A DNA stretch of 64,000 nt, from positions 6,592,001-6,656,000 of the forward strand of contig CM000151.3 of NCBI GenBank assembly GCA_000004695.1, in the 5' to 3' direction. A program made the position numbers and the translations under genes. Origin of the DNA: Dictyostelium discoideum (Eukaryota). Under the pieces are notes generated by a model. It searched no databases, was not told where the DNA came from, and was given only the letters and a program-made list of their open reading frames with translations. Below, one piece after another: positions 35,741 through 44,947 of this stretch (positions are counted from its first letter, which is position 1; the number at the start of each line of letters is the position of its first letter).

Positions 35741-36430
35741 ATGAAATTATTATTAACATTAATTTTAATAATTGTAAATTATTGTTGTTTCATAAATGCA
35801 AATAAATTATTTGTAAATTTTGTTGGATCATATAGTTCAAATACATGCGATGGTAATCCAAGTGGAATTGGTTTTTCTTTAGCTGTTGGCCAATGTCTTC
35901 CAATTGAAGGTGTTTTATCATATGTTATAAACGATATGCCACCAACTACCAATTGGTTCATTACAATGGGCGGCAATGGCAATAGTTTCACACTCAAGCA
36001 ATATGATAGCCAAGATCAATGGTGCAAACAAGACCCAATCAATACACTCCAATTCGATAATTTCGATACTTGCGTAGAACAACCAGCTTTCATCAATGTT
36101 AATAATTCTCTTCTTGCCGATACCCCTGTTGTTTATTCCAAATTAACTCTCTCCCAAAATGTTCCAACCTACGCTCCAGACTCTGTGATCATTGGTCAAT
36201 ACAATACAAATACTAATGTTTGTACCTACAATGATCAACAATTCGGTGTCTCTTACACCTCTGGTACTGTCATCTATAATGAAAATGGTATTTCAATTCA
36301 TGTCTTATGTAATCAAGTTAATCAATCAATGATGTTCAAATGTAAAGAAAGTAAATGCGGTGAAACCTTTATTGACACTTATTGTCAAATGTCTGGTGAT
36401 GTTCAAATTTATTGTAACTCAAATAATTAA
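35741..36430 (+). CDS. secreted Cys-rich protein (229 aa), paralog A of a tandem pair
   Basis: Signal peptide MKLLLTLILIIVNYCCFINA, then KLFVNFVG. There are 10 conserved Cys shared with the downstream paralog. Antisense ORF 35779..35997 rejected. Confidence 0.55.
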   Translation: MKLLLTLILIIVNYCCFINANKLFVNFVGSYSSNTCDGNPSGIGFSLAVGQCLPIEGVLSYVINDMPPTTNWFITMGGNGNSFTLKQYDSQDQWCKQDPINTLQFDNFDTCVEQPAFINVNNSLLADTPVVYSKLTLSQNVPTYAPDSVIIGQYNTNTNVCTYNDQQFGVSYTSGTVIYNENGISIHVLCNQVNQSMMFKCKESKCGETFIDTYCQMSGDVQIYCNSNN

Positions 36431-36997: not shown

Positions 36998-37375
36998 ATG
37001 AAATTATTATTTGGATTAATATTATTAATTGTAAATTATTGTTATTTAATTAATGCAAATAAATTATTTGTAAATTTTGTTGGAACTTATAATTCTGAAT
37101 CTTGTAGTGAAAGTCCAATTGGAACTGGTTTCTCTATGGCTCTTGGGCAATGTGTTCAAATGCAAGGTATTTTTTCTTATGTCACTAGTAGTTCACCAGA
37201 GGCAACAATTTGGATGGCAACATTGGGTGGTGATGGTAATAGCTTTACATTAAAACAATTCCATAGCTCTGATAAACTTTGTACTGAAGATCCAATAAAT
37301 ACTGTTAAATATAATAAATTTGATACTTGTGTTCAACAACCATCCTTCTTAACTTCAAATAATTCTCTCTTGGCC

Positions 37376-37435
<60 letters not shown>

Positions 37436-37732
37436 CTAGTTTATTCCAAATTAACTTTATCCCAAAATGCTCCTTCCTATGCCCCAAATTCTGTAATAAT
37501 TGCTCGTTACAATTCAAGTGATTCCGTTTGTAATTATAATAATCAAAACTATGGTATTTCTTATTCCACAGGTTCTGTAATCTATAATGAAAATGGTGTT
37601 TCTGTCTATGTTGTATGCGATCAATCAAACCAATCAATACTTTTCCACTGCCAAAATGATCAATGTGTTCAATCATTTACTGATACTTCTTGTGACATGC
37701 CACCAAATGACTTACAAATTTATTGTAACTAA
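36998..37732 (+). CDS. secreted Cys-rich protein (244 aa), paralog B, with an internal (AAT)18 poly-Asn insertion
   Basis: MKLLFGLILLIVNYCYLINANKLFVNFVG... is collinear with the 35741 gene: same Cys spacing, TLSQNxPxYAP, VIYNENG, and a shared ending QIYCN. Relative to paralog A it has an extra 18-Asn tract at 37380-37433. Confidence 0.55.
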
Positions 37733-38596: not shown

Positions 38597-38771
38597 AAAT
38601 TTCAAATTCTTACCCCTTTTATTTTTTTTATTTTTTCATAATATAAACCCACACAAAAATAAATAAATAAATAGATAAAAACAAATAATAATACTACTGT
38701 ATTTTTTTATTTTTTATTTTTTTATTTTTTTTATTTTTTTATTTTTTTTTTTTAAAATTTAATTTTTTTTT

Positions 38772-38805
<34 letters not shown>

Positions 38806-39151: not shown

Positions 39152-40139
39152 ATGGAATCATATTCACCATCAATTCAAAAACTATGTGTTTTCTTAAAAC
39201 CAGAATCAGATATTTCAAACACTGGTATTTCATACTTAAATAATTTCCTCGCTGATATGAGCAATGCCATCATTGTTGAATCAATTCATAGTTCAAAATC
39301 ACATAAACACAAGACAATTCTAATTGAAGACATTGAATCAGCACTCAATGTTGTTTTCCCATCTGAAATTGCAGACTCAATTATTAATCAATCAAAAGGT
39401 CGTATTCAAAGTACTTCTTTAAAGAATTTAATGCAAGTTAAAACTTTTAATAATGGTGGTAATAATAATAATAATAATGAACAAGATAATGATCTACAAG
39501 AAAAAGAACAAAATGAATTATCAGATGATTCAGATGTTGAAGGATTTGAAATTATACCAAATAATAACAATATCTACTCACATGACGTTAGTCTTTGTTT
39601 TCCAATTGATTTGGTGTGTCGTGTAACATTGGATTACATTTGTAGAAAGAAGGTAATCCACCAGAATCCATCCGATTTCTACAAGGTGATAGAACAACAA
39701 CAATCGAATCACGTTATCTATACCTACATCTCTTATGCATTGGAGGTTATCACCACCAAGATTTTAATTAAAATTTCTTCATCCACAGACTTGATCGATG
39801 AAGATATCATCCGAAAAGTCATTCAAGATAATCATCATTTAAATTCAGTTCGTCATAAAAATATTCAAGCTTCAAATATTGCTGGTAAATTGTTAGATTC
39901 TTCTTCCTCTTCAAATTCTAATTTACAAACTTCCTTATCTTCTTCTTTTATTTTCTCTTCAAGTAGTAATAATACTACTACTTTTACACAACAAGAACAA
40001 CAAGAACAATTCAACGACGATAAAATTAGTGGTGATGAAATTGAATTTGAAATTAATAATAGTAAATATTTGGAAAAAGAGGATAAAAAAGATCAATTAA
40101 TTCAAAAAGATGAAGAAATTATTTTAAAAACTTTTAATG

Positions 40140-40208
<69 letters not shown>

Positions 40209-40576
40209 TTAATATTAATAACGATAATGATAATAATAATAATAATAATAAAAATAATGATAATAAAAATTATGATAATAATAATAATAATAATGCCGAT
40301 AAAATAGAAAAACTATCACCTGTAAATAATAATGTAAAAAATAGCGAAATTGAAAAAAATATAGAAAAATTAAAAAATATAAATAATAATAATAATGTTG
40401 AAATTAATGAAGCTTTAATTTCAATCATTAAAGAAACTTGTAAAAATATTCCTTCTTCATCATTTTCTTCTGTAAAAAACTTGAAACGTTCACCACCATC
40501 TTTATTTAAATTCAAAGAGCCAATCGATTTGGTTCAAGTTTTAGCTGAAGGAGGTATACATATGGAAGCAACGTGA

Positions 40577-40607
<31 letters not shown>

Positions 40608-40799
40608 ATTATTATTTTAATTTTTTTAATTAAAAAAATAATTAATATCCCTCAATTTTTAATTACACTTTCTAACATACAATTTTTTTTTTTTTTTATT
40701 TTAATTTTTTATTCAAACAGGAATGGAATGTTTTTAGTTTTATTAGTATTAATGGGTTTTGTTATCCAACATGTCACACATACTCAACAAGTTTGTTGA
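39152..40799 (+). CDS. histone H2B-fold domain protein with a long Asn/Ser-rich C-terminal extension and a probable 3' tail-anchor exon; join(39152..40572, 40721..40799)
   Basis: The N-terminus ESYSPSIQKLCVFLKPESDISNTGISYLNNFLADMSNAIIVESIHSSKSHKHKTILIEDIESALNVVFPSEIADSIINQSKGRIQ aligns residue by residue with canonical H2B ([84 protein letters not shown]). The ORF stop overlaps a GTGAGT donor (40573). The acceptor CAG (40719-20) joins in phase to 26 codons encoding NGMFLVLLVLMGFVIQHVTHTQQVC, a single TM helix. Confidence 0.5.
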
Positions 40800-41006: not shown

Positions 41007-41146
41007 AACAAAAAGAAAAAAAACTTTTTGATTTTCAATTAATATAACATTTTTAAGACAAAAAAAATTCTTGGTTTATTTATTTTTTTTTTTTTGGATA
41101 ATTATAAATAAATAAAAAATCTAATTTCCAAAATTTATTTTTTTTT

Positions 41147-41184
<38 letters not shown>

Positions 41185-41195
41185 TTTAATTTTTT

Positions 41196-41251
<56 letters not shown>

Positions 41252-41634: not shown

Positions 41635-42042
41635 ATGATGGAAATTGATAAGAATGTTGAACAATCATCTAATAAAGTTGAATATAATCAACCAAAATCA
41701 CCAATAACTTCAATTTTAGTAAACAACAATAGTAGTAATAATAATAATAATAGTAATAATAAAAATAATAACAATGAGGAAGAATTTGACATATCATCAC
41801 CATTAACATTATCACCAATTGCTAATTGTGGGGCAAGTGGTAGTAATATTGATTCATCAATTGATAATACACCTCACCTATTATCACAAATATCCACTCC
41901 ACCAATATCATCAACTTCATCTATTACATTATTAAATGATAAAAAAAAAGGAATCTATTCAACTTTTTTAGATTTAGATTATTATAATAATACTTATTTA
42001 AAAAATAAACAAAAAATATTACAACCAAAATTAAATCAACAA

Positions 42043-42073
<31 letters not shown>

Positions 42074-42187
42074 CTAAAACATTAACATTTTCATTAGATT
42101 CACAACAACAGCAACAACAACAACCACAACTCCAATCACCTCAATTAATAGATCAACAACAACAACAACAACAACAACAGCAACAGC

Positions 42188-42219
<32 letters not shown>

Positions 42220-42907
42220 ATACCATATCATCAAAGAAAACATCATATATCAATTAGAGATGGTGATGATAATGATAATGAAGTAGATTCATTTAATATT
42301 TTAAGTCAAAATCAATTAATTCATCAAACATTTAATAATCCACAAAATCATCATTACTTTTCATCAACATCACCATCTTTATTGTATCACCACCAACAAC
42401 AAACACAATTAGAACAAAAACCAATTTATTCATCTTCATCTTCATCATCAATTTTATCATCACTATCATCATCAACAATTTCATTTTATAATTCTATTAC
42501 ATCATTATTTCTAACGTTTCCACAAACTATTAGTACAGATCCAATTATAATTAGAGAATACGAAAGATTAAAAATGTTACAAGAACAACAGGTAGGACCA
42601 AGACATACAGAGATTTTATTAAGAAAAGAGGATGGAGTTGGAGGAAGAAAAGCATTGAAAGAAAAGTTTGTTGAAATCTATGAATCCTTTTTCAATGGTG
42701 AAGATCCATCAGAGAACCAACCAATTTTTTGGGAACAATTATTTTTAATTAAAGTTAATATTCCATTCCTTGAAAGATGTATAATCCTAACATCTGAAGA
42801 GAATTTATTAGCTTTAAAACAAAATATTAATAAAATTTTCACTCAATCTTGTTTTTGGTTAAAAGATTCAAATTCTTTAAGATTAACTCATATTATTGAA
42901 GTAAGTA

Positions 42908-42942
<35 letters not shown>

Positions 42943-44269
42943 ATCATTATTATTAATAATATATTTTATATTTTTTATTTTATTTTATTTTAATTTAGAC
43001 ATTAAGTATATTATTAAAAAGTATATTTAGAAAGAAATTTAATAATTTTGGATTTGATATTTTAAATATTTTATGTGGTATAGAGAATTCAGATCAAGTT
43101 TTTACAGATATGATAAAAGATTTAGAACAATTATTAAAGAATTCAAGTATTGATAAAAAGGTTAAAATTGGTGTTATCAATTTATTTACAATCATTGCAA
43201 CAGCAACAGAATATATTAATCAAAATACACTCTTACAATACTTTATGTCTGTAAATATCTTTGATACATTGGTTACATTCTTGGGTGAAGATGATATTCC
43301 AAAACAAACTCAATTAAATATTCTCACTTTACTTTGTTACTTTTCAAACTTTCAAAAATATGAAATTACAAATCCATATTTAAAAGATTTATCAAATTTA
43401 TCTGATCCAATTAAAGTAAATTTAATAATTTAATAATTTAATAACTTAATTTTATATTTTATTATTAACATTTTTTTTTTTTTTTTTTCATATAATTTTA
43501 GATATTAAAAATTTTAAATTTAATAACACAAAATTTAAAAGATCATAATGAATTTTTTGAACAACAATATAGAGATCCAAATTTAGGTATGGTATCAAGA
43601 TTTAGTGGATATTTAAGTAGTTGGGTTTATTCACCTAAAGTAGTACAACCATTATCATTCTATGAAACTGGATCAAGTTTAATGATATTGTATGAATTAT
43701 TCTATCAAAATGATCATTTTGTAAACATGTTGGTAAAAGGTGGATTACCATTTGCAAATGGTGGTGAAAATGGTTCAACATGTCCAGATATCATTAAACA
43801 ATTCTTTAGTTTTTGTGCTTATTTAGCATCGGATGCTCAAAAGGATTTGAAAACCATTTACTCTAGAATGGCATTGTTAATATTACTTTGCATTTGTGAA
43901 AAGAGAGAATTGGAAGATTTCTTTCATGATATTAAATCAACTTGTTATATCTTTATCTACTCAAAGAAATCATTGTTCTCAGATCCAAAGGAAACTGAAA
44001 AACATCCTTTATCATGTTGGACATTGGATATTTTATCTCAATTCATCAAATGTAATCTCAAAGGTAAAATCTCAATGGATGTTCATCAAAGTGCTGTAGA
44101 TTGTATTCATCGTATAGTATCTTATAAAAAGAAAACTTTAAATCGTTTACCTTATAAATGGAGTGAACTTTGGAGTGCTTTATTCTCTTTAATTTCAATG
44201 GTTTCAACTTTAAATATTTCAAATGATAAAATTCAATTAAATCAATCAATTCATGTTGGTATAAGTGTA

Positions 44270-44323
<54 letters not shown>

Positions 44324-44947
44324 CTTCTCTAAAAATAATATTTTATTAACTTTTTTTTTTTTTTTTCACTTTTCCCCAAGACTGTTAATATTTTTAATCT
44401 TTTTATAAATTATGGTGATTCATTTTTACCAAGTCCAAATGATTATGATGAATTATTTTATGAAATTATTCGTTCTGGTCAAGTTATTGAAAATTTTTAT
44501 CAATTTATTTTAAACCAAACAACAACTGGAGGTCAAAGTGTTACATCTCCATCAGCAGCAGCATCAGCATCTAATCCAACAACACCAACTCCATTATCAC
44601 CTCAACAATTACCAACTATTACTACTACTACTACTACCATCACTTCTAATAATGAATCAAATAATCCATTATTAAATCAATTATTAAATATAAGATCAAT
44701 CGTTCAACACTTTACAAGTAAACTTGAAGAGTGGTCAGCAAATAATGCAGAGGTTGCTTTAACTGCACCACAAGTTTCAAAAATCATTAAAGATAATTAT
44801 GATACACTCAGACTTAAACTTCAAGAGAATTTAGATCAATTTGAACCATATGTTGAAAATCCAAAAGAAGTTTTATTCTTTAAACATATTATTAAAGAAT
44901 TAATTAATGATTTAAGGAAACAAATTAATGTTACTAATATAATTTAA
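41635..44947 (+). CDS. large (~1000 aa) protein with an N-terminal poly-Q/N region and a conserved-looking alpha-helical C-terminal region; four exons, join(41635..42900, 42999..43415, 43502..44266, 44381..44947)
   Basis: Three consecutive ORFs (41635, 43110, 43589) plus a fourth open segment are linked in frame by GTAAGT, GTAAAT and GTAAGT donors and AT-rich introns ending in TTTAG/CCAAG. All four phases are 0. The C-terminal half has ordinary complexity, so it is probably a folded domain. I could not identify the family. Confidence 0.5.

Follow-up and report, generated by a model that had tools for sequence, protein, structure and literature searches.

What kind of protein is encoded by a gene that opens with a histone fold and appears to close with a membrane anchor? 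The question is raised by a locus at positions 39,152–40,799 of a stretch of 64,000 nucleotides of the Dictyostelium discoideum genome (GenBank assembly GCA_000004695.1, contig CM000151.3, positions 6,592,001–6,656,000), referred to here as the window, which is extremely A+T-rich with a Dictyostelium-like composition. Histone folds are normally soluble, basic modules of DNA packaging or of transcription factors, and fusions of H2B with H2A into doublets are seen as characteristic of giant viruses. An earlier note on this DNA, made from its letters alone, had described an H2B fold followed by a long disordered tail and a possible anchor exon. With moderate confidence, the analysis presented here favours a 499-residue tail-anchored protein specific to Dictyostelia, in which an H2B–H2A-like module would form a platform away from DNA.

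Gene structure and the anchor exon

An open reading frame (ORF) beginning with ATG covers positions 39,152–40,576 of the forward strand and encodes 474 residues. Its stop codon (TGA, 40,574–40,576) overlaps a GTGAGT splice donor at 40,573, as the earlier note had seen, and the AG acceptor ends at 40,720. Splicing splits codon 474 as AC/G, with AC closing exon 1 and the G at 40,721 completing the codon; the frame is kept, and exon 2 adds NGMFLVLLVLMGFVIQHVTHTQQVC and a stop, which gives a full product of 499 residues. The G+C content is 25% in exon 1, 10% in the intron, 29% in exon 2 and 13% downstream. The splice sites, the phase and this base composition fit an intron and support a two-exon gene model.

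Six orthologue models are available: two from D. discoideum-type assemblies (P0001 and P0002), one each from D. purpureum (P0003), Synstelium polycarpum (P0005) and Acytostelium subglobosum (P0006), and a EukProt model (P0004). Orthologues are alignable over the full length of exon 1, and five of the six end in N-G-x-F-L-V-x-L-x-L-x-G-x-x-(I/L)-Q, the segment encoded by exon 2; the remaining one, P0004, stops at ...HLEAT, which is the exon 1 boundary. In genomic DNA of D. purpureum, exon 1 ends with ...ATT AC/GTAAGT, followed by an 83-nucleotide intron and then by TCTAG/A AAT GGA ATG; the corresponding junctions in A. subglobosum read ...GCA AG/GTATGT...CATTAG/C AAT GGA. The codon position and phase of the intron are identical in D. 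discoideum, D. purpureum and A. subglobosum, while its sequence and length differ. When D. discoideum is compared with D. purpureum, six synonymous changes and one non-synonymous change fall within the first 13 codons of exon 2. A closer comparison, with another D. discoideum assembly (GCA_054859385.1), gives a single, synonymous change in exon 2 and a 28-nucleotide indel in the intron; the annotated model there fits a 120-nucleotide intron with the same splice sites.

The two-exon gene with its spliced anchor exon is real, and the practical outcome for annotation is that the 474-residue ORF is not the full product. The hydrophobic exon in the right phase that the earlier note had proposed is confirmed in its coordinates and recurs at the end of the five other models; the distance of 150 nucleotides given for it was slightly off, as the intron measures 148. 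Any phase-2 intron with a GTRAGT donor produces an in-frame stop, and the TGA on the donor is therefore no evidence for termination. A special regulatory role for this stop was also considered and rejected, an in-frame TGA or TAA being automatic with such a donor.

A tail-less H2B-like fold at the N-terminus

The first conserved domain begins at the initiator methionine. In a phmmer search of the Protein Data Bank (PDB), residues 2–82 align without gaps to essentially only H2B chains (E values from 1.2e-11 to about 5e-5); the best match, at about 1e-11, is a tandem H2B construct, and single H2B chains lie at about 1e-5. A family profile used with hmmsearch finds H2B in the same database at E 3e-10 to 4e-7 (yeast H2B at 4e-7), and profile–profile comparison with hhalign gives 95% and E 2e-8 for H2B, against E 0.07–0.44 for H2A, H3, H4, NF-YB and NF-YC. 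The Pfam Histone family (PF00125) scores 14.5–15.5 bits, under its gathering cut-off of 26.4 bits. AlphaFold2 (AF2) predicts helices at residues 6–13, 28–50, 58–68 and 71–85. By these sequence comparisons residues 2–82 are an H2B fold, and the phmmer, profile and hhalign results bear out what the earlier note had read at the N-terminus. One detail of that reading, the match to the TGIS of H2B, was five residues out of register: HMMER pairs the H2B segment PDTGIS with P17-ESDIS-22 and sets T24-G-I-S27 of the query opposite K-A-M-G of H2B.

Every orthologue starts at the M-ESYS of alpha1, and hence without an N-terminal tail. The charge of the domain also departs from that of a packaging histone: its net charge is -1 and its isoelectric point (pI) 6.3, where the human H2B fold has +6 and 9.7, and the basic residues of the H2B signature have given way to others (REIQTAVR has become EDIESALN). 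The missing tail, the missing basic surface and the Pfam score under the cut-off are the reasons why the protein is filed as histone-fold-derived rather than as a chromatin variant of H2B.

A second conserved domain, probably H2A-like

The remainder of the ORF had been taken in the earlier note for an Asn/Ser-rich disordered tail of about 390 residues. This is not so; low-complexity, variable sequence is confined to residues ~99–124 and 251–447, and an alignment of five species contains three further conserved blocks in exon 1, at residues 125–136, 137–250 and 448–474. The second of these blocks is a conserved domain, probably an H2A-like partner of the first, and its recognition changes what the protein is.

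When domain 2 is compared by hhalign with six histone-fold families, H2A is the best match (score 19.6–20.7, P 0.011–0.017), with scores of 10.8–13.0 for H2B, H3, H4, NF-YB and NF-YC. The H2A score is reached by none of 200 column shuffles (mean 10.8, standard deviation 2.0, maximum 17.0) and by none of 55 real segments of 144 residues taken from other ORFs of the window (maximum 17.3). The alignment covers alpha2-L2-alpha3-alphaC in the same register as a match made by eye, in which SLCFPIDLV of domain 2 corresponds to GLQFPVGRV of H2A, YISYALEVITTKIL to YLAAVLEYLTAEIL, and IDEDIIRKVIQDNHHLN to IIPRHLQLAIRNDEELN. Under relaxed settings hhalign runs colinearly from the L-x-F-P-V of H2A through alpha2, L2 and alpha3 into PNIQAVLL. 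It is under these relaxed settings alone that the family counterpart of the H2A motif [AC]-G-L-x-F-P-V, namely [VL]-S-L-x-F-P-[IVT], with S147, F150 and P151 invariant, is aligned. Such a colinear alignment requires about 17 inserted residues between alpha1 and alpha2 of domain 2, compared with H2A. Within the inserted segment lies an invariant D175-F-Y...E181.Q183 (residues 175–183, positions 39,674–39,700), which has no counterpart in histones.

The structural predictions point in the same direction. AF2 places helices of domain 2 at residues 152–165, (176–181), 188–208, 217–226 and 228–248, and in the second, low-confidence model the secondary structure runs through the pattern alpha1-alpha2-alpha3-alphaC twice over domains 1 and 2. 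A Foldseek search (3Di+AA) of 350,542 PDB chains with the low-confidence AF2 model returns as its top nine matches engineered single-chain fusions of H2B with H2A or H2A.Z, which align over about 240 columns across both domains (E 0.015–0.4, probability up to 0.99); isolated H2B chains rank behind them. Among the viral models of BFVD the top match is a pithovirus H2B–H2A doublet, and a weak one (E 0.16, TM-score ~0.25).

The acidic patch of H2A (E56, E61, E64, D90, E91 and E92) and its basic DNA-binding residues (R29, R42 and R77) were compared as well. In the hhalign register the acidic patch keeps E56 only, as the invariant E198; E61 is replaced by Lys, E64 by Ile, and D90–E92 by N-H-H. The DNA-contacting R29 and R77 have both become Leu, and the pI of domain 2 lies between 4.9 and 7.4 across species, compared with about 10 for canonical folds. 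Domain 2 is probably a diverged H2A-type histone fold, placed as in viral and engineered doublets.

Linker, acidic motif and spacer

The two domains are joined by an acidic linker that varies between orthologues in length and sequence; residues 99–135 carry a net charge of -10. The linker gives way, directly before domain 2, to the motif DDxDVxxFEIIP, in which six sequences from five species agree without exception at D125, D126, V129, F132, E133, I134, I135 and P136. An acidic run and a Phe are shared with the acidic DEF/Y motif, which is used by Sad1, Chz1, Anp32e, Swr1 and Spt16 for binding H2A–H2B (PMC11109203). By this resemblance the motif may bind the histone-fold module in cis, a speculative proposal, or may recruit real H2A–H2B. 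Beyond domain 2 lies an Asn/Ser/Asp-rich spacer whose length varies among orthologues and among D. discoideum assemblies. A poly-Asn tract at about 40,140–40,225 differs in length from those of the two D. discoideum-type models (P0001, 503 residues; P0002, 476 residues).

The juxtamembrane segment and the predicted membrane anchor

Tail-anchored proteins have a single C-terminal transmembrane domain (TMD) that is inserted post-translationally, and the spliced product has this layout by prediction. The mean Kyte-Doolittle hydropathy over 19 residues reaches 1.94 at the C-terminus, and no other segment exceeds 1.6. In four species the C-terminal mean is 1.94–2.45, again in the only segment above 1.6, with 2–10 unconserved residues after the best window, and the N-terminal 25 residues (mean hydropathy -0.16 to -0.36) contain no signal-like segment. 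The hydropathy and the conserved segment in five models support the tail-anchor exon that the earlier note had suggested; the topology and the target membrane are predictions. The flanks of the anchor carry little charge, as is more typical of tail anchors of the endoplasmic reticulum (ER) type than of mitochondrial ones.

The predicted TMD (GMFLVLLVLMGFVIQHV) is more than hydrophobic, as N475, G476, F478, L479, V480, L482, L484, G486 and Q490 are invariant across four genera. A conserved face with Asn, Gly, Phe, Gly and Gln suggests specific contacts within the membrane, with a partner or in an oligomer, and not a generic anchor. The juxtamembrane segment before it is conserved too, with P449, L451, P457, D459, L460, I469 and E472 invariant in four species. 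Pfam finds nothing meaningful in the C-terminal module, and a profile search with the juxtamembrane segment and TMD retrieves no other proteins, so that the module is not visibly shared.

In the KASH proteins of the nuclear envelope, the TMD precedes a luminal peptide of about 10–30 residues with a PPPX-type motif at its end. A KASH domain was considered for the C-terminus and rejected: the tails after the TMD (THTQQVC, KAN, MGVVCEASA and NMPVKC) are short and unconserved and have no PPPX.

Conservation and distribution of the family

Protein searches find orthologues only in dictyostelids. An exhaustive HMMER search of 1.84 billion representatives with the domain 2 profile likewise returns only the dictyostelid orthologues and a spurious repeat protein (P0007); the family is restricted to Dictyostelia. 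Public annotation describes its members as 'hypothetical protein' or histone-domain-containing protein only, and the exact 474- and 499-residue products of the window are absent from a collection of 15 billion proteins.

The ratios of non-synonymous to synonymous substitution rates (dN/dS) against D. purpureum, which are approximate because dS is saturated, are 0.06 for domain 1, 0.08 for residues 125–250, 0.08 for the core of the TMD and 0.39 for the spacer. Residues 125–250 are 77% identical to those of D. purpureum. Domain 1, domain 2 and the anchor are under purifying selection. A pseudogene was among the candidates and was rejected, the ratio being 0.06–0.08 in three separate blocks.

A working model and its alternatives

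In the reading that we favour, the C-terminal helix would be inserted post-translationally into the membrane of the ER or the nuclear envelope, leaving in the cytosol or nucleoplasm a part composed of the tail-less H2B-like fold, the acidic linker, the motif and the H2A-like domain. The H2B-like and H2A-like halves would pair within one chain, as they do in giant-virus and engineered doublets, and a flexible spacer of 100–200 residues would present the histone-fold pair. The module would then most likely mimic the H2A–H2B dimer or be a membrane-tethered protein-binding platform. Since both domains are neutral or acidic, the basic DNA-contacting residues are lost and there is no N-terminal tail, the module most likely does not wrap DNA.

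Several points weigh against this model. It is important to point out that the hhalign probability for H2A is only 3–4%, with P about 0.01, and that the family alignment comprises about six sequences. The mean pLDDT (predicted local distance difference test score) of the AF2 models is 46 with a four-sequence and 48 with a six-sequence alignment; both lie below 50, and no claim about the three-dimensional structure is therefore made. Searches of the PDB with domain 2, by phmmer and by profile hmmsearch, find no histone, the only matches, to cathepsin H and to a glycosyltransferase, being due to chance, and Pfam gives nothing meaningful for domain 2 in a single sequence or in any family member. 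A profile of domains 1 and 2 together matches the PDB in one stretch, the H2B half, even on H2B–H2A chimeras. At the other end of the protein the hydrophobic core is short, at 13–17 residues, and contains a conserved Gln. Finally, the pairing in cis, the topology and the compartment are inferred, and the platform function purely so.

These weaknesses give room to an H2B variant tethered to a membrane and paired in trans, whose domain 2 would lack a histone fold or would not be the partner of domain 1. Domain 1 would then dimerise with a genuine H2A, an H2A variant or another H2A-type histone-fold protein, and the anchor would tether that partner, or nucleosomes, to the inner nuclear membrane. 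Methods at the level of HMMER do detect domain 1 alone as a histone fold, the similarity of domain 2 to H2A is weak and the AF2 models are unreliable, and H2A–H2B binders of the inner nuclear membrane exist in Sad1 and Mps3 (PMC11109203, PMC3087001). A chromatin partner in trans fits poorly, however, with a domain 1 that is non-basic, without an N-terminal tail and without the Arg and Lys residues of the H2B signature. Domain 2, moreover, is constrained as much as domain 1, sits exactly where viral and engineered doublets put H2A, and has H2A as its best and only histone-family match, in a colinear register. Pairing in trans seems unlikely on these grounds. A genuine single-chain H2B–H2A doublet at the nuclear envelope, which would exchange into peripheral nucleosomes or capture factors that bind H2A–H2B, is rather improbable; if it were true, chromatin or histone traffic would be physically coupled to the membrane, no fused histone doublet would have been confirmed earlier in a eukaryotic genome, and no histone-fold protein integral to a membrane would have preceded it.

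The origin of the module could also be sought outside the host. Capture of an H2B–H2A doublet from a member of the nucleocytoviricota by a dictyostelid ancestor, with later fusion of the anchor, would account for the order of the domains, H2B and then H2A, which is typical of giant-virus histones (PMC9145170), and the top match in BFVD is a pithovirus doublet. That match is weak, however, and domain 1 matches cellular H2B directly, the yeast protein included; the spliceosomal intron conserved among dictyostelids, the conserved host synteny and the host-like composition all speak for a host gene, and no viral neighbours are seen around it. We regard a viral origin as very unlikely. Still less probable is the alternative offered in the earlier note, in which the gene ends at 40,576, the main product is soluble with 474 residues, and the hydrophobic exon lies downstream by coincidence. 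The in-frame stop directly on the donor and the P0004 model that stops at HLEAT would be expected on that account, but the stop is automatic with the donor and silent on termination. The five other models include exon 2, D. purpureum and A. subglobosum share the site and phase of the intron, and exon 2 is under purifying selection, and this alternative is rejected for the main product. In a weaker form, intron retention may yield a minor soluble isoform beside the anchored one.

Genomic context

The coordinates of the gene, its parts and its neighbours are collected in Table 1. The downstream neighbour is a homologue of ARMH3, which is split over at least two ORFs and so has at least one intron; D. 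purpureum has the same neighbour, which supports orthology with the D. purpureum gene. The pair of CfaA/B/C-family ORFs that lies upstream of the gene in the window also precedes its orthologue in a further D. discoideum assembly (L003). Runs of poly(T) or poly(A) of at least 100 nucleotides flank the gene on both sides (38,700–38,800 and 41,110–41,250) and are typical of intergenic DNA in Dictyostelium.

Table 1. Positions in the window of the gene, of the parts of its product and of neighbouring features
Feature	Positions	Strand	Description
Exon 1	39152–40572	+	Codons 1–473 and first two bases of codon 474; unbroken ORF
Intron	40573–40720	+	Phase 2, 148 nucleotides, GTGAGT...ACAG, 10% G+C
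Exon 2	40721–40799	+	Third base of codon 474, 25 codons, stop TGA at 40797–40799
Domain 1	39152–39445	+	Residues 1–98; tail-less H2B-like histone fold, alpha1-alpha2-alpha3-alphaC
Acidic linker	39446–39523	+	Residues 99–124; variable length and sequence
DDxDVxxFEIIP motif	39524–39559	+	Residues 125–136, directly before domain 2
Domain 2	39560–39901	+	Residues 137–250; conserved helical domain of ~110 residues, probably an H2A-like histone fold
Low-complexity spacer	39902–40492	+	Residues 251–447; Asn/Ser/Asp-rich, poorly conserved
Juxtamembrane segment	40493–40572	+	Residues 448–474, P.L....P.DL.......I..E...
Predicted transmembrane tail anchor	40725–40775	+	Residues ~476–492, followed by 7 residues
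CfaA/B/C family pair	35741–36430, 36998–37732	+	Tandem counting-factor-associated ORFs, Pfam PF11912, E 4e-40 and 2e-34
ARMH3 homologue	41635–44332	+	ORFs 41635–42993 and 43589–44332; ARMH3_C E 4e-21
B-box/Sel1 ORF	45140–46780	-	546 residues; N-terminal B-box zinc finger, Sel1 repeats, weak glycosyl hydrolase 85 match
tRNA genes	48387–48459, 54491–54573, 55152–55224	+, -, -	One tRNA-Leu(TAA); two tRNA-Arg(TCT), one on each strand

Comparison with known systems

Full-text literature searches yielded no paper that deals with a histone-fold protein of the tail-anchored or transmembrane type, and searches on H2Bv1/2, on histone folds combined with tail anchors and on H2B domain-containing proteins yielded no description of such an architecture. 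The protein is filed as histone-fold-derived with a new architecture, a histone-fold doublet combined with a tail anchor, each of a known kind. A conserved cellular gene under selection in which an H2B fold, a probable H2A fold and a membrane anchor are joined would mean that a doublet architecture can arise or persist in a eukaryote, that a surface of the H2A–H2B kind has been re-used away from DNA, and that there may be a new connection between membranes and histone-binding machinery. D. discoideum, as a model organism amenable to genetics, allows this to be put to the test.

The individual parts have clear relatives. With canonical H2B the protein shares an ungapped alpha1-L1-alpha2-L2-alpha3-alphaC, in which alpha1 begins with ESYS and alphaC is preceded by a PxE(L/I)A turn; canonical H2B has a basic tail and a pI of about 10, whereas the dictyostelid protein is tail-less with a pI of about 6 and, at 499 residues, carries further domains and a membrane anchor. 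With tail-anchored proteins it shares a single hydrophobic segment in the last 25 residues and the lack of an N-terminal signal, but its cargo is a histone-fold module and the face of its TMD, with Asn, Gly and Gln, is strongly conserved. Tandem histone folds outside chromatin have a precedent in Son of sevenless, whose N-terminal histone domain has two of them in one chain and serves as a protein- or membrane-proximal regulatory module, not in DNA packaging; its domain context is another one, without a transmembrane anchor, and to our knowledge no sequence similarity between the two proteins has been detected.

A further parallel is offered by the SUN proteins of the inner nuclear membrane, Sad1 in Schizosaccharomyces pombe and Mps3 in Saccharomyces cerevisiae, which connect the membrane with the H2A–H2B surface. 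Sad1 and Mps3 bind histones, whereas the dictyostelid protein, without a SUN domain and without sequence relation to either, appears to carry a module resembling the histone dimer itself.

Single polypeptides with H2B followed by H2A occur in Marseilleviridae, pithovirus-like and other giant viruses and are said to be unconfirmed among eukaryotic histones (PMC9145170); one source reports that viral doublets wrap DNA into nucleosome-like particles (PMC8357426). The giant-virus doublets (H-beta-H-alpha of Marseilleviridae, pithovirus-like LCPAC304) and the engineered fusions of H2B with H2A or H2A.Z share with the dictyostelid protein an H2B-like fold followed by a fold that, in the latter, is probably H2A-like. 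In contrast to these doublets, the dictyostelid gene is cellular, contains an intron and is restricted to dictyostelids, and its product has an acidic linker of about 40–60 residues between two non-basic domains and continues into a long spacer with a transmembrane anchor behind it.

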